This document shows positions 21,703-38,176 of a stretch of 64,000 bases of DNA, piece after piece; within the stretch, counting starts at the first letter, position 1; each line of letters opens with the position of its first letter. The notes under the pieces are model-generated. The model searched no databases and was not told the DNA's origin. It worked only from the letters and a program-made list of their open reading frames with translations. The translations under genes were made by a program, and so were the position numbers. Source of the DNA: Deltaproteobacteria bacterium (lineage in GTDB: Bacteria; Desulfobacterota; GWC2-55-46; JAJCZF01); NCBI GenBank assembly GCA_029262535.1, contig JAJCZF010000074.1:78883-142882 (forward strand), in the 5' to 3' direction.

Positions 21703-22016
21703 AGGGAAGAGGAAGGGGGGCGACACTTAAAGGGAGCGCCTGCTACCGCACTTAAGGTTTTTGCGTAGGCGCTCGATATCCAGCCGCAAAAGAGACCGTG
21801 ACCACCGCTTGCTCTCTTCCCGGTTTCGTTAAGGCATGACGGAGATTAAACGATTGACTGTGGAATGGAAATAGGATTATATGAGGTTATCTATCGCTAT
21901 GCCGTTTTAAAAAAGACGATACGGGCGAGAAAGTTTTAGACTAAGGGAGGGCTTCTGTCTGCAACTCACTTGAAGAGTTTTTGCAGCCCCTTACTGCGAC
22001 AAAGAGGTCTCTATAC

Positions 22017-23499
22017 GATGGAAACTAAAAAGAGGACCACGGTAAAAAAACTCACAGAGCGTATCAAAGAACTGGAACTACTCGTCAAGGTATCGACCAT
22101 GATATCCTCCATGCTTGAGCTGCCGAGGCTGCTTGAAGATATTATGAACATAGCCAAGCGGATAGTCGGCGCTGAGGCATGTTCCGTTCTGCTGGTGGAT
22201 AAGGAAACGGGCGACCTCACCTTTAGCGTGGCGATGGGCCAAAAGGGAGAAGAGGTAAAGAAGTTCAGGATAAAGCCCGGCCAGGGGATATCGGGCTGGG
22301 TCTACGAGCACGGCGAGACGCTCTTGATCGAAGACGCCCAGGCCGATGAGAGGTTCTACGGCAAGGTGGATAAGGACACGGGGTTTATTACGAAGAGCAT
22401 GGTGACGGCCCCGCTGATTGTCCATGAAAGAACCGTGGGCGTGATACAGGTCATAAACAAGGCAAGCGGCGGCTTCTTTACCGAAGAAGACATGCAGACG
22501 CTTATTTCAATCTCGGGGCCGATGGCGGTAGCCATTGATAACGCTGTAATGGCCGAGGAGCTGAAGGAGTCGAACAGGCAGATAGAACTCTATAGCAGAG
22601 ACCTCGAAGGCATGGTCCGGGAGAGGACCGAAGAACTCACAAAGGCCAACATGGAGATCAAGCTCGGACAGGCCAGGCTGCTTCAAACCGAAAAGCTCGC
22701 TTCAATAGGCCAACTCGCCGCGGGCGTGGCCCACGAGATAAACAACCCGCTGAGCTTTGTCCGAAGCAACCTTGGTGCCATAAAAAGCTCTACGGATAGT
22801 TTTTTTGAGATCATAGAGAGCTATGGGCGCGTTCTTGAGGGTATCGATTCTCCGGAGGTCGCCCTCGCGGCGGTGGAACTTAATTCCGTCAAGGATAAGC
22901 TCGACTTTGACTTCTTGAAAGAGGACATGGGAGAGCTTCTAAGCGAGTCGTACCAGGGCATCGACAGGGTGACCGATATCGTTGGCACCCTCAAGGATTT
23001 TTCAAACATAGACCGCGCCGATAGAAGACGCCAGAATCTTAACAAATTGATAGATACCGCCTTAAGCGTTCTTGAGAGCAGGGTCGGGCCGAATGTCAAG
23101 CTTGTAAAGGACTATGCCGAGTTACCCCTCGTAGAGTGCCTTACGAGCGAGACAAACCAGGTCTTTTTTAATATACTGGATAACGCCTTTACGGCCATAG
23201 GCGAAAACGGTCTGATTACCGTCAGGACCAAAAGCGGCGAAGAGACCGTATTCGTAGAGATAACCGACAGCGGAGAAGGTATCGGTGAAGAGCATCTGGG
23301 CAAGGTCTTTGATCCCTTTTTTACTACGCATGAGCCCGGCAATGGGACCGGTCTAGGCCTGACCATCACCTATAATATAATCAAACGACACGGCGGAGAG
23401 ATCAGCGTCAAGAGCCGGCCTGGAGAAGGAACGACCTTTACTGTAGAGTTTCCAATAAGGATGGCCGAAGAGACGCTGGAGGGCGTCCTCTCGGCCTGA
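22017..23499 (+). CDS. GAF-domain sensor histidine kinase
   Basis: Coiled-coil, a GAF-like region, an H-box [15 protein letters not shown] and a HATPase G-box GTGLGLTI. The first in-frame start codon is at 21970. ATG 22017 has the better RBS (AAAGAGG). Confidence 0.8.
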
Positions 23500-23686
23500 A
23501 CCGCCGACCCGAATTCGAATGGGCGAAAAAAACGCTTGGACGGCTTTCCGCTCTTTGGCGGGATATCTCTGGAGGCTTCCTGCCTAATGCTGGACAGCAC
23601 GCGTGGTTTGGCATATTATATTGACCGGCATGATAGCGCAGTACATGTTTGTCTATGAAGCTTTAAATAATGCAAGGTTATCTTAG

Positions 23687-25102
23687 ATGACTAATAACTC
23701 TAAAACTCATAAAGTCCTTATCGCTGACGACGAAGAATCCAATAGAAGGATTCTTGAGACACAACTTCAACTTCTCGGCTACGAGACGGTATTGGCCGTA
23801 GACGGCAATGACGCTATTGAAAAGGTCGCAAGCAATTCGCCCGACCTCATCTTGCTCGACATCATGATGCCTGGCATGGATGGGTTTGAGGTCTGCATGA
23901 TATTGAAGGCGGACTTGAAGACGGCCATGATACCGGTCCTGTTCGTTACGGCCCTGGACGATAAGGAATCGAGACACAGGGGGCTTGAGGTAGGGGGGAA
24001 CGACTTCCTTACAAAGCCGGTCGATAAGTTCGAACTTATGTTAAGGGTGAAAAATCTCCTTGAGATAAAGGACTACCAGGACTTCATAGTCGACTATAAC
24101 AGGCAGCTTGAGAAGGAGGTAAACAAGAAGACCTCAGAGATTCAGGCCGCCTACGACAGCCTCAAGGTGGCCCACGATAAGCTCATTGATAACAAGCTCA
24201 CTCTTGAGAAGAAGAACGCATTGCTTGAGGAGGCGAACAGAGACCTTGTCGATACAAGGGCGCAGGTGGTCCAGTCCGAGAAGATGGCCTCCGTTGGGCT
24301 GCTTGCCGCCGGCGTGGCGCACGAGATAAACAACCCCGTTGGATACGTTAAGAGTAACCTCAACTCGCTTAAAGATTACGCCGATGACCTGCGAGGCCTT
24401 CTTAAGCTTCACGGATCTCTTATGAAGGTAAAGGAGGACGGCGCTTCCGATCTAAAGGAGATATTGAAAGCTATTGAAGAGTACAGTGAGAATGTGAGCC
24501 TTGAAGAGTTAGTGACCGATATCGACGAGATCGTAGCGGAATCGATCGAAGGCATGGACAGGGTCGCCGATATAGTAAAGAGCCTCAAGGACTACTCACA
24601 CCAGGAGAGCGGGGCCGTTGCCAAACACTCGGATATCAACGAATGCCTCGAGGATGCGATAAAGCTCTGTTGGCACGAAATAAAGTACAAGGTAAAACTT
24701 ATAAAAGAACTGGGCGAGCTGCCGCGGATAGTCTGCCGTTCCCAGCAACTATGCCAGGTCTTTTTGAACTTGATCGTTAATGCCTCGCACGCCGTTTCAG
24801 ATGACGGCAAGATATGGGTAAAGAGCTATCCGAATGAAAACTATGTGGTCGTAGAGATAAGGGATAACGGCCACGGCATCCCGGCCGACAAGCTTGGCAA
24901 GATATTCGATCCCTTCTTTACAACTAAGGTGCAGGGCGAAGGCACGGGGCTCGGGCTCTCTATCGCCTACGGCATCATAGAGGAGCATAATGGAATTATA
25001 GAGGTCGATAGCGGAGAATGGGGAACATGTTTTACGATCCATCTTCCGTATGAAGGTATGGAAGCCGACGAGGCGCCGTGCGGCCAAGAGGATGGGGGAT
25101 AA
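23687..25102 (+). CDS. Hybrid REC-histidine kinase (N-terminal receiver, C-terminal HisKA+HATPase)
   Basis: REC motifs (ADDEESN, DLILLDIMMPGMDG and K at +), H-box [15 protein letters not shown] and GTGLGLSI. It is a paralog of the upstream kinase core. Confidence 0.85.
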   Translation: MTNNSKTHKVLIADDEESNRRILETQLQLLGYETVLAVDGNDAIEKVASNSPDLILLDIMMPGMDGFEVCMILKADLKTAMIPVLFVTALDDKESRHRGLEVGGNDFLTKPVDKFELMLRVKNLLEIKDYQDFIVDYNRQLEKEVNKKTSEIQAAYDSLKVAHDKLIDNKLTLEKKNALLEEANRDLVDTRAQVVQSEKMASVGLLAAGVAHEINNPVGYVKSNLNSLKDYADDLRGLLKLHGSLMKVKEDGASDLKEILKAIEEYSENVSLEELVTDIDEIVAESIEGMDRVADIVKSLKDYSHQESGAVAKHSDINECLEDAIKLCWHEIKYKVKLIKELGELPRIVCRSQQLCQVFLNLIVNASHAVSDDGKIWVKSYPNENYVVVEIRDNGHGIPADKLGKIFDPFFTTKVQGEGTGLGLSIAYGIIEEHNGIIEVDSGEWGTCFTIHLPYEGMEADEAPCGQEDGG

Positions 25103-25104
25103 AA

Positions 25105-26463
25105 GTGGAAAAGAAAGCGCATACCATACTTCTGGTAGATGACGAGAAGAATATCCTGAATTCGCTCTCCAGGCTCTTTAGGAGGGAAGGGTACGGTATC
25201 TTGAAGGCGGAGAACGCGGCTGAGGCGCTCGCCCTTCTGGACGACAACAAGGTATCTCTGGTCATCTCCGACTACCGGATGCCCGAGGTGGACGGCGTGG
25301 AGTTCCTTTCCATAGTAAAAGATGGTTCGCCCGACACGATCAGGTTTATGCTGACCGGTCAGGCCGATCTCGATTCCGTCGTGGAGGCCATAAACAAGGG
25401 CGAGGTATCCAGATACATCACCAAGCCGTGGGACGACGACATGCTCAAGATTACGGTCAAAGAGGCCCTTGAGCACTACGATCTGACCCAGGAGAACAGA
25501 CGGCTTTTCGATGAGACCATGAGGCTCAACGAGGAGACGGCGAGGCTCAATGAAGAGCTTACCGATATCAACGAGCACCTCGAAGAGAAGGTAAGGGACA
25601 AGACAAAGGAGATAAGGGAAAACTTTTTCGGCTTCGTTCGCATGTTCGCCGACTTGATGTCGCTCTATGACCCGGTGCTTGGCGGACATACTTCGAGGGT
25701 CGCTACCCTTGCGAGGGCGCTTGCCGTGCGCTTGGGGCTTGAGGAGCAGGATGTAGACCTAATCGAGGCTGCGGCCTACCTTCACTCCATCGGCCTGATC
25801 GGGGTGCCGAAAGATGTGTTAAAGAGGGCTGAAACCACGGTCTTTTTGAGCGATGTCGAGTTGGCCTTCATGAAGAAGACCCCGATAGTCAGCCAGCGTC
25901 TGCTTGCGCATATCGATATGCTCCTTCAGTCCGGTATCATCATAAGGAGCCATGCGGAGAACTTCGACGGAAGCGGCTACCCGGACGGCCTCAGGGGTGA
26001 GGAGATACATATAGGATCAAGGATACTGGCCGTCTGCAAGGCATACGATAAGGTGTTGAGCAAAAAGAAGGATGTCAGCAAGAGAAGGGAGTTTGAGTAT
26101 ATCAAGCAGCTCTCCCCAAAGGAGTACGACCCGAACGTCCTCGCAGCCCTGGTGGGGTTGAGGCTTGGCGATGCGGCCGAAAATTTCTACAGAAAGTCGC
26201 TTGCTGAAGGCGGCTCCGGAAAGAGAGGCGCCACGAAAAAGATCTCCGCACCGGTGGTTGAACACGAGACGCATGCCGGCACCATGCCCTTTGAGGCCCT
26301 TCGGGACGGGATGTTGCTTGCGGAAGATATCAAGAATATTAGCGGCAAGGTGCTCGTGTCAAGGGGGTCCAGGCTTACCAACGTACTGATCGAGAAGGTC
26401 CTTGGAATGAAAGAACTCGACCAGATAAAGGCAATGACCACAAGGGTCTACGAAGACGATTGA
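25105..26463 (+). CDS. Response regulator with HD-GYP phosphodiesterase domain (RpfG-like)
   Basis: REC (LVDDEKN...DYRMPEVDG), then HD-GYP with HSIGLIGVP and FDGSGYPDGLRGEEI. A GTG start just after the upstream stop is likely. Confidence 0.8.
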   Translation: MEKKAHTILLVDDEKNILNSLSRLFRREGYGILKAENAAEALALLDDNKVSLVISDYRMPEVDGVEFLSIVKDGSPDTIRFMLTGQADLDSVVEAINKGEVSRYITKPWDDDMLKITVKEALEHYDLTQENRRLFDETMRLNEETARLNEELTDINEHLEEKVRDKTKEIRENFFGFVRMFADLMSLYDPVLGGHTSRVATLARALAVRLGLEEQDVDLIEAAAYLHSIGLIGVPKDVLKRAETTVFLSDVELAFMKKTPIVSQRLLAHIDMLLQSGIIIRSHAENFDGSGYPDGLRGEEIHIGSRILAVCKAYDKVLSKKKDVSKRREFEYIKQLSPKEYDPNVLAALVGLRLGDAAENFYRKSLAEGGSGKRGATKKISAPVVEHETHAGTMPFEALRDGMLLAEDIKNISGKVLVSRGSRLTNVLIEKVLGMKELDQIKAMTTRVYEDD

Positions 26464-26489
26464 CGGTTCGTGTGGATTCGTTCTAGTTA

Positions 26490-27029
26490 CTACGATCTTG
26501 CGGTCATCAAGGGTCGGTATGGAATGGCTCTGAGTTCTCCGAGGAGCCTGTCGATACCGTCCGCGAGTCCGATACCCTTTATCAGTTCGCTCTCTTTGCC
26601 CCGCGCTACCTTCCTAAGCTCCATGTCGGCGACTTCTTCGTCAAAACCTTTCGATATGATTTTTTCGAGAAGCGCCCGGAAGAGAACCCTCCTCTTTTCG
26701 CCCTGATCCGTTTCGTCCCGGCGGCATTCAAAGTTTTCAAGCAGGGTGGAGCCGCACGCGCAGTTACGAAAGAGTTCCACGATCCTATTGTCGTCTTCAT
26801 CGTAGGATTCTTTAAGCCCCGTCTTCAAACCCGCCTTCGCGGTCTTTGCCAGAAAGTCCTCCTGGTCGTAATATATCTCGCCGCAGGTATTGCATCTTTT
26901 TGGGAAGTTGTCGTCTGAAACCGGTTTTAACCCATTATATATGTCGCTCGTCATATAATGATCTCCTGATAGCCCTATAGGCGCATCCACTCCAAGATTG
27001 GGAGAAGGGAAGCACCTTCTTCTTTTCAT
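26490..27029 (-). CDS. Hypothetical protein with two Cys pairs (CNTCGE ... CACGS), possible zinc ribbon
   Basis: 179-aa ORF, antisense-oriented relative to the surrounding genes. The internal start MTSDIY may be the real one. Confidence 0.4.
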   Translation of the reverse strand: MKRRRCFPSPNLGVDAPIGLSGDHYMTSDIYNGLKPVSDDNFPKRCNTCGEIYYDQEDFLAKTAKAGLKTGLKESYDEDDNRIVELFRNCACGSTLLENFECRRDETDQGEKRRVLFRALLEKIISKGFDEEVADMELRKVARGKESELIKGIGLADGIDRLLGELRAIPYRPLMTARS

Positions 27030-27307
27030 TATTTTAAAGCCTATAATTTATAATTTCAATAAGTAATTTTTATCGTTTGTACTATCTTATGTCTGGCATG
27101 GGCCTTGTTTGCTATTTACATATCGTCATTAGATTATGTATAATATAATATTATATTCATGCTCTGCACTATCATTTGATTTTTGAAATATAGCACGATA
27201 CTACTCAAGCTGCCTCTTGTATCCTATCCTGTTGAAGCCTCACCCGTTAAGGCAAGCGAGTTTTAGTCAAGTCGTTATCTCTCATTATAAGGTAAAGGGG
27301 AGACCAG

Positions 27308-30300
27308 ATGGATACGAGTGGCAGTAATCTCAAAATAGGACTCAGGGGTAAGACCCTCTTAGGGCTGGGTTTTTTGGTCTTCTGCGCGCTTCTCATCCTT
27401 GGGGGCACCACCTACTGGCACAGTTTTAAGGTCGCCGAAAAGACGGCCGTTGAGTTCGCCGGGGAAGAGATCGAGCAACTGACCGTCGGTGTCGGCTATT
27501 TGCTCAAAAGCTCCAGGGCCGACCTGAAGGTAATAAAGAGCACGCCGCCCATACAGGGCATCATTCGGGCCATGGATGACGACGGCTTCGACGTCGTAGG
27601 GGAGAGCACCATCGACGAGTGGCGCGGAAGGCTCGCCACCATCTTCGACTCCTTTATGAGAAACAATCCCGGCTACAGCCAGTTACGCTACCTGGATAAG
27701 GACGGTAACGAGATCGTTCGCGTCGAACTCCTCGGCATGGCCGCGCGTATCGTTCCTAGAGAAGAGCTCCAGAACAAGGCCGACTACCCCTATTTTACAG
27801 AGGCCATAAAGTTAGAATCCGGAGAGTTCTATTCTTCCGATGTGACCCTCAACCGTGAGCGGGGGCCTATTGAGACCCCCCATACTCCAATGCTCAGGCT
27901 CTCGACCCCCATTTACGATGAGGTTGACGTCGTAAGCGGAGTTCTCGTCTTGAATATCCTTGCCGACCCGATCTTCGACACCATCATCCCAAAGACCGGG
28001 ATAGAGACCTACATCATAGACGATAAAGGTTACTTCCTTCGCCATCCCGACAGCGCAAAGGAGTTCGGTGGAGAGCTTGGCCACGGGTTTTCGGTCTCCG
28101 ACATAGATTACGAGCTTGACGACGACGGTTCTTTCGACCGGCATGACAAGTTTGTGTACCACCAACCTCACGAGAACCATATCGAGGGCTTTAAGAAGGT
28201 CTTTTTCGACCCGTCCGACAGGACCCGTTATTGGAATCTTCTCTATAAGATTCCAAACGAGATGGTCTTCGCCAGCCTCTATGCGACCAGAAACTCGATG
28301 CTCGCAACCGGAATACCCTTAGGAATCCTGTCGATCATCCTGATTACATTGTTGGTCTCAAGAAGGGTCGTTCGTCCGGTTGTCAGCCTCTCAGAGGCCG
28401 CGCGGAAGATGCGCGCGGGAGATCTCTCCATCAGGGTTCCCGAAGAGGAGGTGACAGACGAGTTCCGCCACCTCTACCGTGCCGTTAACGAGTTCGCCGA
28501 GGCGCAGCAGTGTGCGGTCGAGCGCTTCGAGCGCGCGCTAACCGTAAGGACCGAGGAGCTTCAGAGGAGCAACATAGAGTTGCTCGGTTCTCAATCGAAA
28601 CTTGCCGCAAGGAGCGGGGAGCTTGAGAATCTCAACAGGGCGCTCATTTCTTCCCAGTCCGAACTCGATGCGAGGAACAACGAACTCAAAACGAAGGCCG
28701 AGTACGAGGGCACCATGACGAGGCTGATAGCCCTCTTTAACTCCTCCTTCAACGAGGAGTATGAACTCAAAGAGATGTTCTCCATCCTCGGCGAGCGGTT
28801 GCCCTTACCTTGCGCGGCTTTCTACCGCTACGACGAATGGTCCGGAAAAGCCGTATGCGTAGCCTCCAAAGGGAATCCCGAGTGCTTTGTCAGGGCCTTT
28901 TCTGAGGACGAGAGCCACGTAAACAGGGTCTGCGTCGACCTGAGGCCCGTGGTGCTTGAGGGTGACGAGATCGATTTCACCTGTGAGGCCGAGGGGTGTG
29001 AGGCCGGAGGCGCCGCGATAAAGCCCCTGGCGGTCTTTATCCATCCTGTGACTTATCGCGAGAAAGTATTAGGAGCGCTCGTAATAGCCTCGACCGCGCA
29101 GATGGACGATCTCAAAAAGGATTTTATCGAAAAACTCTCGATACATCTCGGCATAGAGCTTAATAATCTAAAACAGTATGCCGATCTCAAGGAACTCTCG
29201 GCGCAGCTAAAGCAGAAAGGCAAGGAGATAGGGCAGAAGAATATCCAGCTCGAAGAGTCGAACAAGATGAAGAGCGAGTTTCTGGCCAACATGTCCCATG
29301 AGCTGAGAACACCTCTTAACGCCATAATCGGATTCTCGGAGATATTGAAGGACGGGCTGATGGGAGAGATGGCCGACAAGCAGAAGGACTACTGTAACGA
29401 TATCTTCACGAGCGGACAGCACCTCCTATCCCTTATTAACGACATACTGGACCTCTCGAAGATAGAGGCCGGCAAGATGACCCTCGACCTTGAGGGCGTC
29501 TCTGTACCCGGACTGCTCAAAAACAGCCTGATGATCGTAAAAGAGAAGGCCATGTCTCATTCCATAGGGCTTGAGTTGGACCTGGATGAGAGGCTCGGCA
29601 TCGCCTCCGTTGACCCGCGTAAACTAAAGCAAGTCGTATATAACCTCCTCTCCAACGCAGTCAAGTTTACCCATGACCACGGAACGGTCTCGCTCGCGGC
29701 CAGTTTAGTTGAGAAAGACTCGGGCAGGATGATGGAGATAAGCGTAACGGATACAGGCATAGGGATATCCGAAAAGAACCAGAAGAGACTATTTAAACCC
29801 TTTGAGCAGCTTGAGGGAGCCATTACCAAGAAATATAAGGGCACCGGCCTCGGCCTCATGCTGGTAAAGCGTCTCACCGAGCTTCACGGCGGCACGGTGG
29901 AGGTCAGGAGCAAAAAAGGCGAGGGCTCCTCCTTTACCGTAAGGATCCCGTACATGGCGGATGAGGGAGCCACAGCCGAAGAGTCGCTATTCCTGCCGGA
30001 GAAGCCTCTCCAAGAGATGTCTAGTGAAAAAGGGCCGCTCGTCCTTATAGTAGAGGACGACGCAAAGGCTGCCGACATTACCAAGGCCCAGCTCGAAGAG
30101 AGGGGCTACAGGACCATGACGTCCGAAACGGCCGAGGATGGGCTTAAGGCTGCCGCGCTGATGCGGCCTGACCTCATAGTGCTCGACATCCTTCTTCCGT
30201 CCATGAGCGGATGGGACTTTTTGCAGATGATCAAGGATGACGATGCGACCTGTAATATACCGGTGGTAATACACTCCATAGTTGCGGATTCGAGGAAGGG

Positions 30301-30881: not shown

Positions 30882-31256
30882 ATGAAGATATTGATTATCG
30901 AAGATAATACCATTAATATGAAGCTTGCCAGCGATCTCATGGAGAGCGCCGGGTATGAGGTGCTTCAGGCCGTGGAGGCCGAAGCCGGGATAAGGCTCGC
31001 CAATGTTGAGCAACCGGAATTGATACTGATGGACATTCAGCTTCCGGACATCGACGGCATTACCGCCATGAGACTCCTGAAAGGGAATGAGAAGACCCGC
31101 GACATCAAGATAATCGCGCTCACGGCATTCGCCATGAAGGGCGACCGCGAGCGCATGCTCAAGGCAGGCTGCGACGGTTATATGGCGAAACCCATAAGAT
31201 ACAAAGAGCTCTTCAAGCTTATAAAGGTTATTACAGGTCATGCCGCTGATCTTTAA
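30882..31256 (+). CDS. Single-domain CheY-like response regulator
   Basis: 124 aa with IIEDN, DIQLPDIDG and K105-type residues. Confidence 0.85.
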   Translation: MKILIIEDNTINMKLASDLMESAGYEVLQAVEAEAGIRLANVEQPELILMDIQLPDIDGITAMRLLKGNEKTRDIKIIALTAFAMKGDRERMLKAGCDGYMAKPIRYKELFKLIKVITGHAADL

Positions 31257-31292: not shown

Positions 31293-32426
31293 ATGATAAT
31301 GGAAGACGCGCCAAGAAAGATACTGGTGGTGGACGATGAGGATACCAACAGAAAGCTTCTCAAGATACTGCTTGAAAGCCTTAACTACGTGGTCGATACG
31401 GCGTCAAACGGACAGGAGGCGCTTGATAAGGTTTCGGCCGAGCTTCCCGACCTCATCCTGCTCGACATAATGATGCCGGGCATGGACGGCTACGAGGTCT
31501 GCAAGAGGCTCAAGGAGAGCCCGGACACTTCTTTCGTCCCGATCATAATACTCTCGGCCCTCGCCGATATGGAGTCGAGGGTCAAGGGGCTCTCTATGGG
31601 CGCCAACGACTTCCTCTCAAAGCCCTTCGACAGGTCGGAGCTTGCCGTCAGGGTCGGAAATCTCTTGAAGGCCAAGGAGTACGACGACTTTATAATCGAG
31701 TATAACAGGATGCTGGAAGCGGAGGTCAACAAGAAGACCTCTGACCTGCAGACCGCCTTCGAAGAGCTGAGGGCGGCAAACGAGGAGCTTGTCGGCACCA
31801 ACAGTCTCTTAAAGGAAGGCTACCTCGACACCATCGAAAAGCTTACCTCCGTAGCGGAGTATAAGGATCACGAGACGGCCAATCATGTAATAAGGGTCCG
31901 CGAGTACAGCGGCCTCTTTGCGATTGAACTAGGCTTCTCTGATGAGGAGTCGGAGACGATCAAGTATGGCTCGACGCTCCACGATATCGGCAAGATAGCC
32001 ATTCCTTCCGAGATACTCCTGAAGACAGGGGGACTTACCAGCGAGGAGTTTGTTCTGATGAAGACCCATACCACGGTCGGGGCCGCGATCCTTGAGAACC
32101 CGGTATCCGATTATCTCAAGAAGGCCCGGGTGATTGCGCTCACACATCATGAGAGGTGGGACGGAAGCGGCTACCCCGCCGGGCTTCGGGGAGAGGATAT
32201 CCCTATAGAGGGCAGGATCGTGAATATCGTGGACCAGTACGACGCCCTGAGGAGCGTAAGGCCCTATAAGAGGGCGTTTGACCACGATACCGTATTAAAG
32301 ATATTGACCGAGGGGGACGGAAGGTCCATGCCCGGGCACCTGGATCCGAGGGTGCTTGAGGTCTTTTTGGATATCCACGGCAAGATAGCCGAGGTCTATG
32401 ACGAGTTTAAGGACGCCGGGGGTTGA
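31293..32426 (+). CDS. Response regulator with HD-GYP domain (second RpfG-like paralog)
   Basis: REC (VVDDEDTN...DIMMPGMDG), then HDIGKIAIP ... HHERWDGSGYPAGLRGEDI. Confidence 0.85.
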   Translation: MIMEDAPRKILVVDDEDTNRKLLKILLESLNYVVDTASNGQEALDKVSAELPDLILLDIMMPGMDGYEVCKRLKESPDTSFVPIIILSALADMESRVKGLSMGANDFLSKPFDRSELAVRVGNLLKAKEYDDFIIEYNRMLEAEVNKKTSDLQTAFEELRAANEELVGTNSLLKEGYLDTIEKLTSVAEYKDHETANHVIRVREYSGLFAIELGFSDEESETIKYGSTLHDIGKIAIPSEILLKTGGLTSEEFVLMKTHTTVGAAILENPVSDYLKKARVIALTHHERWDGSGYPAGLRGEDIPIEGRIVNIVDQYDALRSVRPYKRAFDHDTVLKILTEGDGRSMPGHLDPRVLEVFLDIHGKIAEVYDEFKDAGG

Positions 32427-32449: not shown

Positions 32450-35400
32450 ATGAACGATAATGAAAAGACAAAGGAAGAGCTTATAAAAGAGCTGGCGGAG
32501 CTTCGCGCGAAGCCCTCAGAGGGCGTAGCCGCGGAGAGCGACCGGGACGAGTATAAGGCCTATTTCGATTATATGGGTGACGCCCTGATCGTCCTGGATA
32601 TGCACAGAAGGGTGCTGAGGCTTAATAAGTCCGCCAAGAGGATGCTTGGTTACTCGGACGAGGATATTTCCGGTCTGACTTTTGAGAAGCTCTTTCCGGA
32701 ACGTGAGCATAAGAGCCATTATGCCGAGATGGAGCAGGCTATTGAAACAAGGTCTATCAGGTCTATGGATACTACGCTCATCTCAAAGCGCGGGGTGGAG
32801 ATACCGGTGCTTCTGAGCGGTTCCGTAATGCTTGACCGGGAAGGCGAGCCGTGCGGTTTAATCGGCGTATGCAGGGATTACACACAGATCAAACGGCGCT
32901 ATGAAGATGAGTTATTGAGATCGGAACAGCGCTGCCAGCTCCACATAGAGAGGACCCCTCTCGCAGCCATAGAGTGGAACACCGACTTCGAGGTTGTGGA
33001 GTGGAACCAGGCCGCCGAGAAGGTTTTTGGCTATACAAGGGAAGAAGCCCTTGGCCGACATGCCGACTTTATCATCCACAAAGATGCCAGAGGCCATGTG
33101 GATAAGGTATGGCAAGATCTTATGGAAAGAGAGGGCGGCGAGAGAAGCACAAACCTGAACGTCACAAAGGACGGTAGGACCATATTTTGCGAGTGGTATA
33201 ATACACCGCTGGTCACAGGGGGCGGCGAGGTGATAGGAGCCGCATCTATGGCCCACGATGTAACGGAGCTTAAGGCGGCCCAAGATGCTCTTAGAAGTGC
33301 CCATTACGATCTTGAAGAGAAGGTCCGGGAGCGCACCGAAGAGCTGATAAAGACCAATGAGGCGCTCAGAGACAGAGAAAGAAGGCTCTTAGAGGCCGAA
33401 CGAGTCTCGGGGTTGGGTCATTGGGAGTACGACCTTCGAGACGGCAAACTCTACTGGTCCGATGAGGTCTACCGTATCTTCAACATGGACCCTGAAGAGA
33501 TAGAGTCCTCTTTTGATGCTTTTATGGAGAGGATTCACCCCGAAGACCGGGAAGAGGTCGCCAGGGCCTACCGGGAGTCGGTAGAGAACAAAACCGTCTA
33601 CGATATCGTCCACCGCCTCCTGATGGAAGACGGAAGCGTTAAGTATGTAAATGAGAGGTGCAAGACCGAGTATGACGAGGACGGGATTCCCGTGCGTTCC
33701 CTCGGTACGGTACTTGACATAACGAAACTCAAACAAGCGGAAGAAGCTCTCGGGGAGAGCGAGGGGAAATACCGCCGTTTGTTCGAGAACATGCAGGAGG
33801 GTTTTGCCTACTGCAAGATGGAGTTCGATGAACTCGGCAAGCCGGTTGATTGGGTCTACCTTGAGGTAAACGACTACTTTGAGCTTCTTACCGGACTCAA
33901 AAAGGAGGATGTGGTCGGCAAAAGGGTCACTCAGGCGATACCGACAATCAAGGAAACACACCCGGAACTCTTCGACATCTACGGCGACGTTGCTCTGACC
34001 GGCAGGCAGGCCAGGTTTGAAATCTATTTCAAACCCCTGGAGATATGGCTTTCCGTCGCGGCATACTGTCCGCGTAAAGGGTATTTTATTGCAATATTCG
34101 GCAACATCACGGAGCGTAAAGGGATTGAAGAGGCTCTGAGGGACAGCGAAGAGAGGTTCTCCAAGGTCTTCTATGCCTCGTCCGACATCATGGCGATAAC
34201 CAGGGTGAGCGACGGCCTGATCGTTGAGGTGAACGATACAATGTTGAAGCTGTTTGGCTACGAGCGCGACGAGCTCGTCGGCGATACCACGACCGGAAAG
34301 AATCTCTGGGGAGACCCCTCCGACCGCGATAGGATGGTCGAGATATTAAAGAGAGACGGTTGTATTAAGAACTTCGCTACGAAGGTTTGCACCCGTAGCG
34401 GTGAGTTACGCTCGATTATCTTCTCGGCCGACACCATTACTCTTCGTGGAGAGACGCACCTGATAACGCATGCAAGGGACATTACCGAAAAGCTTGAGGC
34501 GGAAGAACGTCTCAGGCAAAGCGAGGAGAAGTTCAGGGGAATCGCCGAGAGGAGTTACGACGCCATCCTGATGACCGACGCCGGGGGCCATTATACCTAT
34601 ATCTCTCCGGGAGATGAGAAGAACACCGGAGTAAAGGCCGAAGAGGGGATTGGCAAAGACTTCCGGGACTTTCTGCCGGAGAGATCGGTTCCGCTTGCCG
34701 ACAAGGCTTTCGCCAGGGTCCTTGGCGGCGAGACCGTAGAAGGGCTCGAACTTGAGGCCGTGCGCAGGGACGGCAGGCCCTTCTTTATCGAATGCAATAT
34801 CACTCCGGTCTATCAGGATAATGAAGTGTCCGGAACGCAGATAATATACAGGAATATCACGGAACGTAAGCGGGCCGATGAGGTTCGAATAAAGAATATC
34901 GAGTTGGAAAAAGTCAACAGGTTGAAGGACGAGTTTTTGGCGAATATGTCACACGAACTCAGGACCCCCCTTAATTCGATAATCGGCTTCTCGGAGATGC
35001 TCAAGGACGATATGGTCGGCAAGCTAACGGAAGTGCAGAAAGGACAGTGCGAGCTTATATTTAAGAGCGGACGACACCTCTTGGATCTAGTAAATGACAT
35101 ACTCGATCTTTCGAAGGTGGAGGCCGGAAAGATGCAGCTTGAGCTTGAGATGTCCAATATTTCTGAACTGCTCAAGACCGGCGGGCTTATCCTAAAGGAG
35201 ACGGCCCAGAAGCGCTCCATAGAGCTTTCACTGGACATTGCGGACGATATAGGTATCGTCTATGTGGACCCGGTAAGATTCAAGCAGGTAGCCTACAATC
35301 TCCTCTCTAACGCCGTAAAGTTCACCCCGGACGGCGGAAGTGTTTCGCTCTCGGCAAGGTCTATCGGCGCGGATCCGAACAGGATGCTGGAGGTAAGCGT

Positions 35401-35623
35401 TACCGATACCGGCATCGGTATACCGGAAAAGGATATTGAGAGACTCTTTACGCCCTTTGAACAGCTGGAGAATGTCTTTACCAAGAAATACGAGGGTACC
35501 GGTCTCGGACTCATGTTGGTAAAACGTCTCACGGAGCTTCACGGCGGTACTGTGGAGGTGAAGAGCAAAGAAGGCGAGGGGAGCACATTTACCGTAAGGA
35601 TTCCATACAGGGAGTCACTTTAA
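32450..35623 (+). CDS. Multi-PAS (about 5 PAS/PAC) sensor histidine kinase
   Basis: 1057 aa. Repeated PAS/PAC blocks are separated by coiled-coil linkers. H-box SHELRTPLNSIIGFSE. The ATPase core is nearly identical to that of the 27308 kinase. Confidence 0.85.
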   Translation: MNDNEKTKEELIKELAELRAKPSEGVAAESDRDEYKAYFDYMGDALIVLDMHRRVLRLNKSAKRMLGYSDEDISGLTFEKLFPEREHKSHYAEMEQAIETRSIRSMDTTLISKRGVEIPVLLSGSVMLDREGEPCGLIGVCRDYTQIKRRYEDELLRSEQRCQLHIERTPLAAIEWNTDFEVVEWNQAAEKVFGYTREEALGRHADFIIHKDARGHVDKVWQDLMEREGGERSTNLNVTKDGRTIFCEWYNTPLVTGGGEVIGAASMAHDVTELKAAQDALRSAHYDLEEKVRERTEELIKTNEALRDRERRLLEAERVSGLGHWEYDLRDGKLYWSDEVYRIFNMDPEEIESSFDAFMERIHPEDREEVARAYRESVENKTVYDIVHRLLMEDGSVKYVNERCKTEYDEDGIPVRSLGTVLDITKLKQAEEALGESEGKYRRLFENMQEGFAYCKMEFDELGKPVDWVYLEVNDYFELLTGLKKEDVVGKRVTQAIPTIKETHPELFDIYGDVALTGRQARFEIYFKPLEIWLSVAAYCPRKGYFIAIFGNITERKGIEEALRDSEERFSKVFYASSDIMAITRVSDGLIVEVNDTMLKLFGYERDELVGDTTTGKNLWGDPSDRDRMVEILKRDGCIKNFATKVCTRSGELRSIIFSADTITLRGETHLITHARDITEKLEAEERLRQSEEKFRGIAERSYDAILMTDAGGHYTYISPGDEKNTGVKAEEGIGKDFRDFLPERSVPLADKAFARVLGGETVEGLELEAVRRDGRPFFIECNITPVYQDNEVSGTQIIYRNITERKRADEVRIKNIELEKVNRLKDEFLANMSHELRTPLNSIIGFSEMLKDDMVGKLTEVQKGQCELIFKSGRHLLDLVNDILDLSKVEAGKMQLELEMSNISELLKTGGLILKETAQKRSIELSLDIADDIGIVYVDPVRFKQVAYNLLSNAVKFTPDGGSVSLSARSIGADPNRMLEVSVTDTGIGIPEKDIERLFTPFEQLENVFTKKYEGTGLGLMLVKRLTELHGGTVEVKSKEGEGSTFTVRIPYRESL

Positions 35624-36094
35624 AAGAGCCTACGATAGTACGCATTAATGGTATGTCAAGTAGCGTAGCGTCATGAAGTTTATCATAAGTTTTATCACAT
35701 TGGGGTGGAGTGAACCCCTGTAGTGAGATAGTTTTTCTTAGCACAATAGCGTTTCTGGTCTCCGGTGGCCGCTAATATTATGCAGCCCCCCTCTCTACCC
35801 TGGGGCGATCTAGGGAGAGGAGACCGGCGCACTCGACCCCGGTGAGGAAGTTGACCTGGGCGTGGATTTCGGCAAGGGCCCTGAAAGGGATACAAGGACG
35901 TCTAAAGCCCACCCATAAAGATTACCCAGTATTTAAAACATTTCCATCGTTAATCACTTATCTCGAAAAGTTGACCCTAAATCAGAATTATATTATAATT
36001 ATTCCTCACCGTAGGCCTTTCCCGTTTAGGGTGTTGATGACACCTCTCCCCATGAGCATTAAGGAATGGATTGAGTCAACATGTCTTAAGTTAG

Positions 36095-38176
36095 TTGATT
36101 GGGGTTGTTTCGATGCTCTCCTTATTTGTAGATCCTGATTTTTTAAGCAGGCCAATCCTTGACAGCCATTACAATCTTACCCTTGTCGCCCTTTCTTATG
36201 TGGTGGCCTCAATTGCCGCTTACGTAGCACTCTTTCTTTCGACACGCTTTCGCCTGGCTGCCACCGCAAAACAACGCTGGACATTGTTGGTATCAGGCGC
36301 TGTCTGTATGGGTGGGGGCATCTGGGCGATGCACTTTATCGGTATGCTGGCATTTCATCTGCCGGTCGAAGTCACATACGGCCTTTCTCTTACCTTTATC
36401 TCCCTGTTGATTGTTATCGCAGTATCGGCTTACGCCTTCTACCACGTCGGGCGCAAGAAGATAAGCAGATATAACCATCTCCTCGGAGCCGTCCTGATGG
36501 GGCTTGGAATCTCTTCAATGCATTACATGGGCATGGCGGCAATGCGCATGGATGCCATGGCACGTTACAGGCCGGGTATATTCTTCCTTTCGATAATCAT
36601 TGCCATAACCGCGTCCTATACCGCTCTGTGGCTCTTGCTCTACTTTTGCAAAGAAGAAAAAGGTCACGAAAATCTGTTCCACCTCCTAAGCGCTCTCGTT
36701 ATGGGGCTGGCGGTCGTTGGGATGCATTACACGGGAATGTATGCGGCGGTATTTGTCAAGACCACGACTTCACTGCCTCTCCAGGCAGCCGTCAACACAC
36801 ATCTACTGGCGTTTACCATCACGATAGCGGTAGCCGTCATCTTGTGTCTCGGCCTTCTGTCGGCCTTCCAGCTGGAGGTATCGCAGAGGAAGTCCGTCGA
36901 AGCGGCGCTAAGGGAGAGCGAGACCTTTCTGCGTACTATTCAGGAGAACGCCGCGGACGGCATCATCGTCATTGATGACGGCGGAACTATCAAAAGCTTC
37001 AATATGGCTGCGGAGAAGATGTACGGCTACTCCGCCGACGAGGTGTTAGGCAGGAACGTAGATATCCTTATGTCTGAGCCCTACCATAGCAGCCATAACG
37101 CATACCTTGAAAGGTATATTCGTACGAAGGAAAAGCGAATTATAGGAGTAGGCCGAGATGTGGAGGCCCTGAGGAAAGACGGGACCGTCTACCCAATACG
37201 CCTTGCCGTAAGCGAAACGTTCATTGGAGATTGTCGATCGTTTACCGCCATACTCCACGATCTTACAGAACAAAAAAAGGCCGAGGAGGATCTTAGGAAA
37301 CTTTCGCGCGCCGTGGAACAGAGCCCGGTAACAGTCATGATAACCGACCTCAATGGCGATCTGACCTACGTAAATCCGAAGTTCTGCGAGGTCTCCGGGT
37401 ACGAGGCTGAGGAGGTCATTGGAGAAAACCCTCGTTTTCTGAAATCAGGCCATACCTCGGATGAGGAGTACAAGACGCTTTGGAAGACGATCAGCTCCGG
37501 CAACGAATGGCGCGGAGAGCTCCACACCAGGAAGAAGAACGGAGAGCTCTTCTGGGAGTCGGCCTCAATCTCCCCTATTAAATCCGCCGATGGCGCGATC
37601 ACGCACTACGTAGCCATTAAGGAGGATCTTACCGAGAGAAAACGACTTGAAGAAAAATTAAGGGAACTATCGTTTGTTGATGGACTGACCGGTCTTGCCA
37701 ACCGCAGGAGCTATGAAAAGGCCATCAAGAACGAGTGGAACCGTGCGAAGCGCACGAAGACGGCTATCTCCGTCATCATGATTGATATCGATTATTTCAA
37801 ATCTTATAACGATACCCTGGGCCACGCCGCCGGAGATGAATGCCTGCGTAGCGTTGCCCTGTCTCTTAAATCGAAGACTGTCAGGGGCGGCGATATGCTT
37901 GCCCGTTACGGTGGAGAGGAATTTATCGTGATTCTACCCAGTTCCGACAAAAATACGGCAACCAGGCTGGCCGAGATACTCAGGGCGAAGGTCGAGTCGC
38001 TTGGCATAAAACACCCTGCGTCAGTAATATCAGATTATGTCACCATAAGTCTCGGAGTCGCATCTACGATTCCCGGTGAGGTAAGTGATTCAAGCACGCT
38101 CGTCTCGGCGGCTGATGGTGAGTTATACCGTGCTAAAGAGGAGGGTAGGAACATGGTTAAGGGAATAGAATTATAG
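36095..38176 (+). CDS. MHYT-domain membrane sensor, two PAS domains, GGDEF diguanylate cyclase
   Basis: Three MHY[IMT]GM repeats within 6-7 TM helices, then two PAS domains, then RYGGEEFIV (GGEEF). Confidence 0.85.
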   Translation: MIGVVSMLSLFVDPDFLSRPILDSHYNLTLVALSYVVASIAAYVALFLSTRFRLAATAKQRWTLLVSGAVCMGGGIWAMHFIGMLAFHLPVEVTYGLSLTFISLLIVIAVSAYAFYHVGRKKISRYNHLLGAVLMGLGISSMHYMGMAAMRMDAMARYRPGIFFLSIIIAITASYTALWLLLYFCKEEKGHENLFHLLSALVMGLAVVGMHYTGMYAAVFVKTTTSLPLQAAVNTHLLAFTITIAVAVILCLGLLSAFQLEVSQRKSVEAALRESETFLRTIQENAADGIIVIDDGGTIKSFNMAAEKMYGYSADEVLGRNVDILMSEPYHSSHNAYLERYIRTKEKRIIGVGRDVEALRKDGTVYPIRLAVSETFIGDCRSFTAILHDLTEQKKAEEDLRKLSRAVEQSPVTVMITDLNGDLTYVNPKFCEVSGYEAEEVIGENPRFLKSGHTSDEEYKTLWKTISSGNEWRGELHTRKKNGELFWESASISPIKSADGAITHYVAIKEDLTERKRLEEKLRELSFVDGLTGLANRRSYEKAIKNEWNRAKRTKTAISVIMIDIDYFKSYNDTLGHAAGDECLRSVALSLKSKTVRGGDMLARYGGEEFIVILPSSDKNTATRLAEILRAKVESLGIKHPASVISDYVTISLGVASTIPGEVSDSSTLVSAADGELYRAKEEGRNMVKGIEL

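Follow-up and report, generated by a model that had tools for sequence, protein, structure and literature searches.

A 16-kb run of bacterial signalling genes, probably three separately conserved modules, with a conserved four-cysteine protein

The kinase NosK of Burkholderia pseudomallei and B. thailandensis carries an H-E-I-N-N motif and phosphorylates NosR, a degenerate HD-GYP regulator (PMC12570481). In Shewanella oneidensis, signals pass from H-NOX/HnoK-HnoS to HnoB/HnoC/HnoD, according to Plate and Marletta (2012) as cited in PMC6335343 and bioRxiv 10.1101/2021.11.05.467447. HnoD, in which HD is replaced by SE and HHE by QLE, is inactive and inhibits a phosphodiesterase (bioRxiv 10.1101/2021.11.05.467447; PMC6335343). 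The MHYT domain goes back to Galperin et al. (2001), as cited in PMC8846402, and its ligand has not been established in any system (PMC8846402).

The window (the whole 64,000-nt stretch of DNA analysed) contains a 16-kb run of ten signalling genes, with labels g1 to g9, at positions 21970-38176, as determined from ORF coordinates and Pfam. ORFs matched the coordinates of the gene string in the first-pass annotation exactly and the domain architectures claimed there were all borne out by Pfam. Because the flanking genes are non-signalling (a glycan-modification cluster upstream, an FTR1 permease downstream), the block boundaries stand as first drawn. Four receivers had been claimed; six receiver domains were counted, all with the acidic pair, phospho-Asp, T/S and Lys. 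The H, G1 and G2 motifs were found intact in all four kinases using a regex scan, and the N and F boxes were recognized by eye in the translations. All genes except g4 lie on one strand. Intergenic gaps measure 2 nt (g2-g3), 25 nt (g5-g6), 36 nt (g6-g7) and 23 nt (g7-g8), and promoter-like sites, identified by consensus match only, are present in the larger gaps before g2, g5 and g9. The features are as follows.

Module A, comprising a GAF-kinase (g1), a REC-kinase (g2), a degenerate REC-HD-GYP protein (g3) and a small four-cysteine protein (g4):
g1, 21970..23499, plus strand: cytoplasmic GAF-HisKA-HATPase kinase with a type-A core (Pfam)
Promoter-like site before g2, 23591-23619: 10/12 consensus match
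g2, 23687..25102, plus strand: REC-HisKA-HATPase kinase (Pfam), chimera
g3, 25105..26463 (ORF from 25078), plus strand: REC and degenerate HD-GYP (REC-HD_5; Pfam)
g4, 26490..26954 (ORF 26490-27029), minus strand: 154-aa four-cysteine protein, CxxC ... CxC
Module B, comprising a dCache hybrid kinase (g5), a single REC (g6), an active-looking REC-HD-GYP protein (g7) and an extra five-PAS kinase (g8):
Promoter-like site before g5, 27115..27144, plus strand: TTTACA-18-TATAAT, 11/12, consensus match only
g5, 27308..30856, plus strand: membrane hybrid kinase, dCache/HK sensor-HAMP-HisKA-HATPase-REC-REC (Pfam)
Type-B core of g5, 29210-29953, with the H-box at 29294-29320
g6, 30882..31256, plus strand: single-domain receiver, Asp in LMDIQLP at 31026-31046 (Pfam)
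g7, 31293..32426, plus strand: RpfG-family REC-HD-GYP (REC-HD_5; Pfam)
g8, 32450..35623, plus strand: cytoplasmic five-PAS histidine kinase, PAS-HisKA-HATPase (Pfam and TIGR00229)
Type-B core of g8, 34865-35608, paralogous to the g5 core
Module C, comprising an MHYT-PAS-PAS-GGDEF cyclase (g9):
Promoter-like site before g9, 35971..35999, plus strand: TTGACC-17-TATAAT, 11/12, consensus match only
g9, 36095..38176, plus strand: MHYT(x3)-PAS-PAS-GGDEF (Pfam)

What is established for this locus is the order of the genes, their domain content, the state of their motifs, the paralogy and the conservation of neighbourhoods. In this uncultured bacterium, the block probably comprises three signalling modules placed next to one another, each conserved separately, and not one recently duplicated supercluster. 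The three modules are older than the origin claimed for such a supercluster. The GTDB species representatives include nothing closely related to the source genome (best g7 identity 58%). None of the loci examined contained modules A, B and C together.

The cores of g5 and g8 are paralogs: neighbour joining of 104 cores placed them as sisters (bootstrap 80/100). The description of these cores as near-identical holds for the H-box stretch (18/21) and the C-terminal stretch (35/38), but the whole cores share 65% amino acid identity over 248 aa and 69% nucleotide identity. Third codon positions are 54% identical, dS is ~1.2 and no stretch of identical nucleotides exceeds 14. The proposed recent duplication does not agree with this dS. 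Unrelated metagenomic kinases were equally near to the g5 core (65%), in a search that retrieved short proteins only and failed to recover even g5 and g8; long proteins of closer relationship may exist. An H-box 21-mer was matched at 21/21 positions in one unrelated metagenomic kinase, P0212. The duplication is old.

The full layout of g5 is TM-dCache-TM-HAMP-coiled coil-(weak GAF)-HisKA-HATPase-REC-REC, and the 353-bp region separating it from the divergent g4 is AT-rich. L023 was the best counterpart of module B and, in a genome scan, of g5 (sensor 32%, core 59% and receivers 44% identity). In L023, L068, L021 and L028, the counterpart of g6 (55-58% identity) likewise separates the kinase gene from that of the REC-HD-GYP protein. 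Among loci picked by homology, without a formal random control, 39/66 g7-type loci from many phyla have a type-B kinase core on the same strand no more than 3 kb upstream, with a receiver between kinase and g7-type gene in 36 of these 39. A kinase-receiver-(REC-HD-GYP) cassette, widely conserved as an operon, makes up the core of module B, and the module as a whole would form a single, tightly packed operon whose genes lie 23-36 nt apart. The five PAS domains attributed to g8 were recovered as five PAS stretches using TIGR00229.

The motifs LHDIGK (31977-31994) and HHERWDGSGYP (32145-32177) are present in g7, and alignment to PmGH (PDB 4mcw) by phmmer (E = 1.7e-46) covered all metal ligands and GYP, so that g7 is predicted to be a c-di-GMP phosphodiesterase. 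Like the RpfG family and PmGH, g7 has the full architecture with every metal-binding and GYP residue, and like RpfG-type regulators it is placed after a sensor kinase. Unlike RpfC, the partner kinase would be a dCache hybrid with two receivers and no Hpt. A further difference from RpfG-type relatives is the additional PAS kinase after the regulator gene, a kinase downstream of the g7-type gene being found in only 5/64 related loci.

In module A, the motifs HEINN, DxGxG and GxGxGL of g1 are intact, and g1 (22717-22749) and g2 (24305-24337) contain the same 11-residue AHEINNP H-box, as reported earlier. This string is best regarded as a family signature and not as a sign of local duplication; the C-terminal, type-A core of g2 is 52% identical to a kinase of another genome and 41% to the g1 core. 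The phospho-acceptor Asp of g2 lies within LLDIMMPGMDG (23852-23884). Across 196 aa, the REC domain and linker helix of g2 match g7 at 46% identity, and the REC domains alone share 51%, compared to 19-33% for all other REC pairs. At the DNA level, 23840-24156 (g2) and 31446-31762 (g7) form a repeat with 70.7% identity over 317 nt. The top 20 matches of the N-terminal half of g2 were all REC-HD-GYP genes, in a set of 167 loci whose enrichment in g7-type genes favours such matches. Judged from its sequence, g2 is a chimera of a g7/RpfG-type REC and linker with a type-A kinase core. Since this receiver belongs to the module-B (g7) type, a B-to-A relay is suggested, in which the B kinases may signal through the g2 receiver into module A.

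The GTG start of g3 is located 2 nt past the g2 stop codon (context GGGGGA-N5-GTG) and the resulting 452-aa form corresponds to P0001 in NCBI. The protein carries LHSIGL (25780-25797), SHAENFDGSGYP (25948-25983) and, at its C-terminus, a conserved domain of ~60 aa (~26260-26460); its AF2 model has a pLDDT of 88.9. The term HD-GYP paralogs, as worded for g3 and g7, fits poorly with 28% identity and receivers of different types (RpfG/NtrC-like vs PleD/PhoB-like). Both had been called c-di-GMP phosphodiesterases, with absence of the catalytic metal ligands named beforehand as refuting evidence: g7 is canonical and retains all ligands, whereas in g3 the catalytic metal site is lost, and the claim of two phosphodiesterases is not supported. 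Compared to PmGH, the HD Asp (HS), the third His, the second His of HHE (HAE), the first Asp of D..DA and the N-terminal Glu are missing from g3, in total five ligands, plus the Lys of IGK; E..DGxGYP is retained. In a set of 120 homologs, only 61 have D at the position of the HD Asp, and position H250 carries H in 60 and N in 51; the G, Y and P of GYP are kept in 120/120, 107/120 and 119/120, respectively. The degeneracy is clade-wide, g3 belonging to a conserved degenerate clade. Homologs of this clade in three other assemblies each lie 10-26 nt after a kinase with a 16-residue motif stretch. Because the loss of single ligands is tolerated in some HD-GYP enzymes, the catalytic inactivity of g3 is strongly inferred and not stated as fact. 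Most likely, g3 would be a pseudo-enzyme that works by contacting other proteins or by binding c-di-GMP, the mode of action proposed for HnoD and NosR.

Like NosP-NosK-NosR, module A combines an H-E-I-N-N kinase with a REC-degenerate HD-GYP regulator of ~450-480 aa (PMC12570481), and a small separate accessory protein may be encoded alongside. On the NCBIfam NosR family model g3 scored 369 bits, below the 400-bit cut-off, and its degenerate motifs are HS...GYP, vs HG...GTP in NosR. Furthermore, g1 and g2 bear their own GAF or receiver inputs, unlike the Nos system, and the candidate accessory g4, a four-cysteine protein, is unrelated. Among the scanned ORFs (most, not all, of those of at least 150 aa, plus g6), Pfam detected no FIST (NosP) gene.

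Translation of g4 is assigned to the ATG at 26954, with AGGAG 8 nt before it. No domain match was obtained in Pfam or NCBIfam and no fold match among PDB solved structures (AF2 pLDDT 83.7). The family comprises 356 cluster representatives at E ≤ 1e-3 with the invariant columns FP..C..CG, R.C.C and RR (consensus FRNCxCGSTL and RRD), and is conserved and undescribed. In the 49 g4-family loci with enough flank, likewise picked by homology, a type-A kinase is present within 3 kb in 14-20 and a g3-type receiver in 20, vs a type-B kinase in only 5 and a g7-type receiver in 4; a GGDEF gene occurs within 3 kb in 11/49. For ~40% of family loci with flank, no signalling neighbour was found in a tblastn screen. 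A g4-like gene accompanies a type-A kinase and a 370-494-aa REC-HD-GYP gene in L093, L154, L165, L087 and Hahella, and is same-strand and near-abutting in L093, L154, L165 and Hahella; in the window, g4 lies on the strand opposite to g2-g3, and its tie to module A there is indirect. The domain is fused to an AHEINNP kinase in P0247, to a receiver in P0379 and to CbiX, a chelatase domain, in one family member. No g4-like genes were found in 79 g7-type loci or next to g3-clade genes in L002, L167 and L168. A Hahella homolog is named 'oxidoreductase' by NCBI. For type-A kinases, we consider g4 a candidate accessory or input protein. The wiring of the block is otherwise largely ordinary, and the g4 family with its kinase association is the one fresh lead.

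Following a gap of 471 bp, g9 likely has its true start at the ATG at 36113. Its MHYT repeats read MHFIGM, MHYMGM and MHYTGM, and GGEEF with the RxxD I-site is found in RGGDMLARYGGEEF (37883-37924). As had been proposed, it looks like a catalytically competent MHYT-GGDEF cyclase. Like MHYT c-di-GMP enzymes, g9 has MHYT repeats, here three, followed by a c-di-GMP-metabolising output domain; unlike others, the output is GGDEF only and two PAS domains lie in between. It would be transcribed on its own and act as a diguanylate cyclase gated by MHYT/PAS and inhibited by its product.

The predicted target of all three modules is c-di-GMP signalling, with the partners in every phosphotransfer step inferred from adjacency and family type. 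Because the first DHp helices of g5 and g8 differ at 2/20 positions, both kinases are predicted to phosphorylate the same receivers, g6 and g7, of which g6 would serve as phosphoryl sink or shuttle. As the sole intact HD-GYP, g7 would be the phosphorylation-controlled c-di-GMP phosphodiesterase. Module A would resemble the NosK-NosR system, the AHEINNP kinases g1 (GAF input) and g2 (receiver input) acting on g3, with g4 proposed as accessory input to both. The idea of c-di-GMP turnover under a multi-input phosphorelay applies to g7, which is receiver-controlled, but not to g9, which has no receiver and its own promoter-like site. Neither an Hpt domain nor an Hpt motif was detected in the window by Pfam and motif scan, so this is not a classical His-Asp-His-Asp relay. 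Several kinases converging on several receivers, and a receiver-controlled active phosphodiesterase beside a receiver-controlled inactive HD-GYP (HnoD modulating the active enzyme), recall the Hno network as outlined in the sources cited above. In contrast to that network, the block contains no H-NOX sensor or DNA-binding regulator, its wiring is predicted, and the active enzyme would be an HD-GYP (g7) instead of an EAL protein.

A single supercluster formed by recent local duplications and sensor swapping, with two active HD-GYP phosphodiesterases and a cyclase in one multi-input phosphorelay, would account for the sister cores of g5 and g8 with their similar C-terminal stretch, the two DNA-level internal repeats and the signalling genes throughout, on one strand bar g4. 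This origin is very improbable. At the sequence level it is already contradicted on recency (dS, short identical runs, foreign kinases as near to g5 as g8) and on g3 catalysis (lost ligands), and it is further opposed by the low g3/g7 identity with different receiver types, the lack of Hpt and the receiver-less g9. It is less improbable, though still unlikely, that the modules are functionally independent, adjacency reflecting signalling-gene islands with no B-to-A relay and no action of g3 on g7 or g9. Every module has its own promoter-like site and conserved counterparts elsewhere minus the other modules, and relatives too carry long runs of unrelated kinases, L002 for instance having five HATPase-containing kinases plus three receiver proteins. 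Yet the g7-clade receiver on g2 would be difficult to account for if no upstream kinase were shared, in L003 a GGDEF gene immediately precedes the g7 homolog and others lie near g4-family genes in the loci counted above, and the degenerate HD-GYP regulators studied to date act on other c-di-GMP enzymes.

Within the preferred arrangement of three modules, it is doubtful that g4 is an unrelated zinc-ribbon or redox housekeeping protein located between two operons by chance. Its opposite strand, its own promoter-like and ribosome-binding sites, the family loci with no signalling neighbour, the CbiX fusion, the NCBI name of the Hahella homolog and the closest g3-clade loci lacking g4 would all suit such a protein. 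Against it, enrichment is specific to type-A kinases and g3-type receivers over type-B and g7-type ones, the genes are near-abutting on the same strand in four loci, and direct fusions join the domain to an AHEINNP kinase in one protein and to a receiver in another.

The signalling block at 21970-38176 was assigned the nine genes listed below (REC, receiver). The ORF coordinates of the first-pass annotation matched the ORF list exactly, and the domain annotation proposed there bore out every architecture with Pfam.

Genes of the signalling block
g1, 21970-23499: GAF-HisKA-HATPase kinase (Pfam)
g2, 23687-25102: REC-HisKA-HATPase kinase (Pfam)
g3, 25078 or 25105-26463: REC-HD_5, degenerate REC-HD-GYP protein (Pfam)
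g4, 26490-27029, minus strand: four-cysteine protein without a Pfam match
g5, 27308-30856: hybrid kinase with dCache/HK-sensor, HAMP, HisKA, HATPase and 2 receivers (Pfam)
g6, 30882-31256: single receiver (Pfam)
g7, 31293-32426: REC-HD_5, REC-HD-GYP protein (Pfam)
g8, 32450-35623: kinase with 5 PAS units (TIGR00229, five stretches) and HisKA-HATPase
g9, 36095-38176: MHYT repeats, 2 PAS and GGDEF (Pfam)

For g5, a sub-threshold GAF was additionally found between HAMP and HisKA (Pfam at E ≤ 10). The genes are referred to as module A (g1, g2-g3 and g4), module B (g5-g6-g7-g8) and module C (g9). As a whole the cluster is of an ordinary kind, its details being corrected here, and gene strings that combine several kinases with c-di-GMP functions are frequent in bacteria rich in signalling.

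Promoter-like sites (10-11 of 12 consensus matches) were located 5′ of g2, g5 and g9, with a minus-strand site 5′ of g4; terminator-like sites in the block were not more frequent than in shuffled sequences. In module B the genes are separated by 25, 36 and 23 nt, and an independent copy of g5(part)-g6-g7-g8(part) was recovered in a Logan contig of run SRR15505517. The start of g3 lies 2 nt past the g2 stop and is preceded by a GGGGGA ribosome-binding site. For g4, AGGAG was found 8 nt 5′ of the ATG at 26954, a −35/−10-like pair ends 2 nt ahead of the ATG of the longer ORF, and the NCBI call is the 154-aa form (protein P0393). Base composition is flat throughout the block, which is flanked by non-signalling genes: a glycan-modification cluster on the 5′ side and FTR1 permease, tRNA-Val, RuvX and YceG on the 3′ side. 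Rfam returned the tRNA-Val alone for the window, no riboswitch (c-di-GMP classes included) exceeding the threshold.

Two HD-GYP phosphodiesterases had been proposed for the block; this holds for g7 and fails for g3, in which metal ligands have been lost, the very finding named in the first-pass annotation as counting against the proposal. Both proteins were aligned with PmGH (PDB 4mcw) and 120 g3 homologs. The g7 receiver, which is PleD/PhoB-like, carries DD, D (LLDIMMP), S and K (Pfam Response_reg, 8e-34), and its HD-GYP domain carries the metal ligands E, H, HD, H, HH and D together with HHExxDGxGYP. Being identical to PmGH at all 15 columns checked (phmmer 1.7e-46), g7 has every sequence feature of the RpfG family and is a predicted c-di-GMP phosphodiesterase. 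In g3 the ligand set of active RpfG proteins is incomplete: relative to PmGH, the N-terminal E is replaced by V, HD by HS, IGK by IGL, the third H by T, the second His of HHE by Ala (HAE) and the first Asp of D..DA by K. Retained are the H189 equivalent, the His of HD, the first His of HHE and Glu-x-x-Asp-Gly-x-Gly-Tyr-Pro. According to the residue roles given by Galperin and Chou (bioRxiv 10.1101/2021.11.05.467447), E185 goes with the third metal and Tyr285 of GYP touches c-di-GMP. Close paralogy of g3 and g7 was ruled out by 28% identity and by different receiver classes, that of g3 being of RpfG/HupR/NtrC type (2rjn, 3hv2).

The closest ~60 g3 homologs, all from uncultured 'Deltaproteobacteria' assemblies, are likewise altered (HN/HE/HS/HT, IGL, Asn for His, HME for HHE, and K/R/N for Asp), so that the degeneracy of g3, as read from the alignment, is not an accident of a single gene; more distant homologs carry canonical motifs. 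Among the 120 homologs the GYP residues are kept in 120 (G), 107 (Y) and 119 (P). With a nearly perfect GYP loop and discarded metal ligands, the degenerate clade shows which surface is under selection and gives studies of interaction or binding a defined target. A receiver followed by a recognisable HD-GYP fold (Pfam HD_5, 8e-32) with altered HD and HHE places g3, by its sequence, in the predicted inactive, HnoD/NosR-like subgroup of REC-HD-GYP proteins. An AF2 model of g3 (pLDDT 88.9) comprises the receiver (1-106), one long helix (111-188), the helical HD-GYP domain (190-369), a disordered linker and a confident alpha/beta domain of ~60 residues (391-449). This C-terminal domain (26260-26460, residues ~395-461) gave no Pfam match at E ≤ 10 and is kept family-wide (~95% query coverage), the Hahella homolog included. 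A profile of 21 g3-family tails weakly matched an RNA polymerase beta′ segment (6wmr_D 837-866, 'lGrtLAaDVvteKGvvLLeaGtlLdEnlve', E 0.0017), and the tail could represent a small beta module such as RNA polymerase subunits carry as insertions.

In B. pseudomallei, NosR consists of a receiver and a degenerate HD-GYP domain (HG...GTP) and its phosphorylation by NosK, an H-E-I-N-N kinase, is controlled by the FIST haem protein NosP (PMC12570481). The NosR model of NCBIfam (NF053512) scored g3 at 369.1 bits (E 3e-110), a near miss of its cut-off of 400, and g7 at 179.7 bits. As in NosP-NosK-NosR, an H-E-I-N-N kinase stands beside the regulator, the AHEINNP kinase g2 ending 2 nt before g3; in three other assemblies (homologous loci L002, L167 and L168) a g3-clade gene follows 10-26 nt after a kinase with an H-E-I-N-N-type H-box. 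Unlike in that system, no FIST protein was found among 39 Pfam-scanned proteins (g6 and a majority of the window ORFs with at least 150 aa) or in the scanned g4-family neighbourhoods, and neither a NosP/FIST nor an H-NOX partner was found among the Pfam-scanned window ORFs or in four g4-family neighbourhoods. In Shewanella, the inactive HnoD (HD replaced by SE, HHE by QLE) inhibits the phosphodiesterase HnoB within a network of two kinases and three regulators (bioRxiv 10.1101/2021.11.05.467447; PMC6335343). Several kinases, a receiver-controlled active-looking phosphodiesterase and a predicted-inactive HD-GYP regulator occur likewise in the block, but neither H-NOX nor FIST was found among its Pfam-scanned ORFs, and g3 stays under the NosR cut-off. 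By analogy, the block resembles the Hno and NosP networks and is a member of neither. It provides a clear natural case of active-looking and dead-looking HD-GYP regulators side by side with several kinases, the arrangement through which pseudo-enzymes of the HnoD type are believed to modulate c-di-GMP enzymes. To our knowledge, such a role has been reported for very few HD-GYP proteins.

All four kinases (g1, g2, g5 and g8) are HisKA-type sensor histidine kinases by Pfam HisKA and HATPase_c, the HisKA match of g2 (24.7 bits) lying below the Pfam cut-off of 26.9. The His box, G1 and G2 are kept in each (regular expressions HE..N/T, DxGxG and GxGxGL); the N and F boxes were identified by visual inspection of the translations. 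The cores of g5 and g8 (type B) had been described as near-identical and recently duplicated, and they are indeed paralogs, grouping as sisters in 80 of 100 bootstraps of a neighbour-joining tree of 104 cores. Their recent origin did not stand. Over 248 gap-free residues the cores are 65% identical, with 69% identity at the DNA level, 54% at third codon positions and a longest identical run of 14 nt (pS 0.60, dS ~1.2, dN 0.26). Identity is uneven, the middle reaching 40-60% and the H-box and last 45 residues 77-93%, and the latter are the stretches on which the first-pass annotation had drawn. The 21-residue H-box of g5 recurs unchanged (21/21) in P0212, a metagenomic kinase unrelated to it, and 35 of the 38 C-terminal residues are identical between g5 and g8, compared with at most 29 of 38 in other kinases. 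Against the g5 core, short kinases of other organisms attain 65% identity, and against that of g8 up to 61%, and the tree distance between g5 and g8 (0.41) is barely below that between g5 and foreign kinases (0.43), as judged from a non-exhaustive homolog search that covered short proteins only and missed g5 and g8 themselves, such that closer long relatives may exist. A recent duplication is ruled out by dS, by the lack of a long identical DNA run and by foreign kinases standing equally near g5; judging from these comparisons, the two cores are true paralogs, of ancient split, within a highly conserved kinase subfamily.

The H-box proposed to be common to g1 and g2 is present in both (AHEINNP, type-A core). 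Local duplication was rejected for this pair, the g2 core being 41% identical to g1 compared with 52% to the L002 kinase and 43% to a Hahella kinase. The C-terminal half of the NCBIfam MHYT-kinase model NF038348 ('T2SS_HK') matched the g1 and g2 cores (242 and 249 bits), and its N-terminal half matched the MHYT part of g9 (189 bits; 36095-36900); the two building blocks of this model are combined differently in the window, with the g1/g2 cores at 21970-25102 and MHYT in g9.

Multi-input phosphorelay control had also been put forward. In the alignment, none of the six receivers has lost its acidic pair, phospho-acceptor Asp, Thr/Ser or Lys. No Hpt domain was detected in Pfam scans of the cluster, which covered the larger ORFs, and a six-frame scan of the window gave no HxxKG-type motif in plausible ORFs, a scan that a divergent Hpt lacking the motif would escape. 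The classical relay is thus not borne out: g5 lacks the Hpt of ArcB/BarA/TorS-type hybrid kinases, and only an Hpt encoded elsewhere would let its two fused receivers feed a classical His-Asp-His-Asp relay. A link between the modules of another kind is suggested by g2. Its receiver and linker helix are 46% identical to g7 over 196 residues (51% for the receiver alone, compared with 19-33% for all other receiver pairs of the block), the likeness being visible as a DNA repeat (23840-24156 versus 31446-31762, 70.7%). When its N-terminal half was compared with 167 loci, a set enriched for g7-type REC-HD-GYP genes, the best 20 matches were all REC-HD-GYP genes (44-54%) and none were REC-kinases. 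Thus g2 is a chimera of an RpfG-type receiver and an AHEINNP-type kinase core. In the simplest functional reading, the module-B kinases would phosphorylate g2, which would in turn control g3.

A type-B kinase core was found within 3 kb upstream and on the same strand in 39 of 66 g7-type loci with upstream flank, and in 36 of those 39 a receiver lies between kinase and g7-type gene; downstream of the g7-type gene such a kinase occurs in 5 of 64 loci only. The nearest counterpart of module B, in a Nitrospirota bin (L023), runs from kinase to single receiver to REC-HD-GYP gene. Its 1375-aa dCache-type hybrid kinase carries two receivers (identities of 32% for the sensor, 59% for the core and 44% for the receivers), and the single receiver and REC-HD-GYP protein are 55% and ~50% identical to those of module B. 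A scan of GTDB species representatives gave no match above 58% identity. From these counts and the Nitrospirota counterpart it follows that kinase-receiver-(REC-HD-GYP) is an old and widespread cassette, to which g8, the second kinase, is a lineage-specific addition. Between g5 and g8, the first DHp helix is changed at 2 of 20 positions; from what is generally known of kinase-regulator specificity, both kinases would act on a common set of receivers.

No Pfam match was obtained for g4 at E ≤ 10, and its family has no NCBIfam model. An exhaustive HMMER scan (E ≤ 1e-3) yielded 356 cluster representatives, typically of ~140 aa, in which F, P, four Cys, the first Gly and four Arg are strictly invariant (FP..C..CG, R.C.C, RR, then a later Arg and Gly) within a fuller consensus of FP..C..CG ... 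FRNCxCGSTL ... RRD.S..G..RR. The AF2 model of g4 (pLDDT 83.7) gave no Foldseek hit in the PDB at E ≤ 1e-3, the best TM being 0.25. Gene order at four related loci is given below.

Gene order at loci with a g4-like gene
Hahella (L082): g4-like, REC, HDOD, kinase, 447-aa REC-HD-GYP, REC, kinase
L093 (metagenome): REC-HD-GYP, g4-like, REC-kinase, REC-HD-GYP, HDOD
L154 (metagenome): REC, HDOD, REC-HD-GYP, g4-like, PAS-kinase, HDOD
L165 (metagenome): REC, HDOD, PAS-kinase, REC-HD-GYP, g4-like, PAS-GGDEF-EAL

The first Hahella kinase is the one with 43% identity to the g2 core, and the 447-aa REC-HD-GYP protein aligns with g3 from end to end, including the tail, at 33% identity, with HE for HD and GFP for GYP. 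HDOD proteins of ~270-296 aa recur in these four loci and are absent from the cluster of the window. Among 49 g4-family loci with at least 2.5 kb of flank, a type-A kinase core lies within 3 kb in 14-20 and a g3-type receiver in 20, a kinase best matching the g8 type in only 5 and a g7-type receiver in 4; conversely, none of 79 g7-type loci contains a g4-like gene. HD-GYP proteins beside g4-like genes have usually lost the Glu and the last Asp ligand, several being fully degenerate. Fusions join g4 domains to an AHEINNP-type kinase (P0247), a receiver (P0379) and a CbiX chelatase (P0386). The closest g3-clade loci lack a g4-like gene, and g4 of the window is on the opposite strand. Because of neighbourhood context and fusions, g4 is placed with the type-A kinase/NosR-like regulator module, and on the same grounds it would most simply be an input or accessory protein with a putative four-cysteine metal site. 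The CbiX fusion and the NCBI label 'oxidoreductase' on a Hahella member suggest that the domain may be involved in metal or tetrapyrrole chemistry. Current description does not cover the four-cysteine family or the way in which it is specifically tied to AHEINNP kinases and NosR-like regulators. More speculatively, and in our judgement somewhat short of probable, the family could be an as yet undescribed input module that senses metal or redox state and is dedicated to AHEINNP-type kinases and NosR-like, often catalytically dead, REC-HD-GYP proteins, filling the role of NosP (FIST) or H-NOX; module A would be one instance, cross-wired through the chimeric REC-kinase to a classical kinase-phosphodiesterase operon. 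Were this correct, the missing input of a widespread and unstudied kinase/pseudo-phosphodiesterase system would have been named.

In the cyclase g9, an RxxD I-site lies five residues ahead of GGEEF (RGGDMLARYGGEEF at residues 597-610; Pfam GGDEF, 1.5e-50), the features of a predicted diguanylate cyclase with product inhibition. Four MHYT stretches were matched (Pfam MHYT, 2.1e-46), with MHFIGM at residue 79, MHYMGM at 142 and MHYTGM at 210. With no receiver, g9 would depend for its gating on the MHYT and PAS domains that it carries, together with the I-site. The second PAS domain is LOV/NifL-like (YtvA_fam 104 bits, nifL 110 bits). A photo-adduct-forming LOV domain was rejected, since NPRFLKSG (37427-37450) has Pro where the photoactive Cys would stand; a flavin-based redox sensor is possible.

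Elsewhere in the window, no Pfam match was obtained at the thresholds used for the ORFs at 9140-11335 (minus strand, 731 aa), 40336-41193 (plus, 285 aa), 49008-49589 (plus, 193 aa) and 51329-52168 (plus, 279 aa). The nine-gene same-strand cluster at 12127-21702, ending 267 bp 5′ of g1, encodes 2 methyltransferases, a split transketolase, an SDR, an ATP-grasp ligase, a ROK kinase, a GT2 glycosyltransferase and a radical SAM enzyme, which together could form a pathway that modifies a glycan or an exopolysaccharide. At 50533-57667 lie genes of a haem-copper oxidase (COX3 and two COX1-like ORFs), followed by a REC-AraC response regulator (59015-59719), a further two-component output beyond the signalling block.
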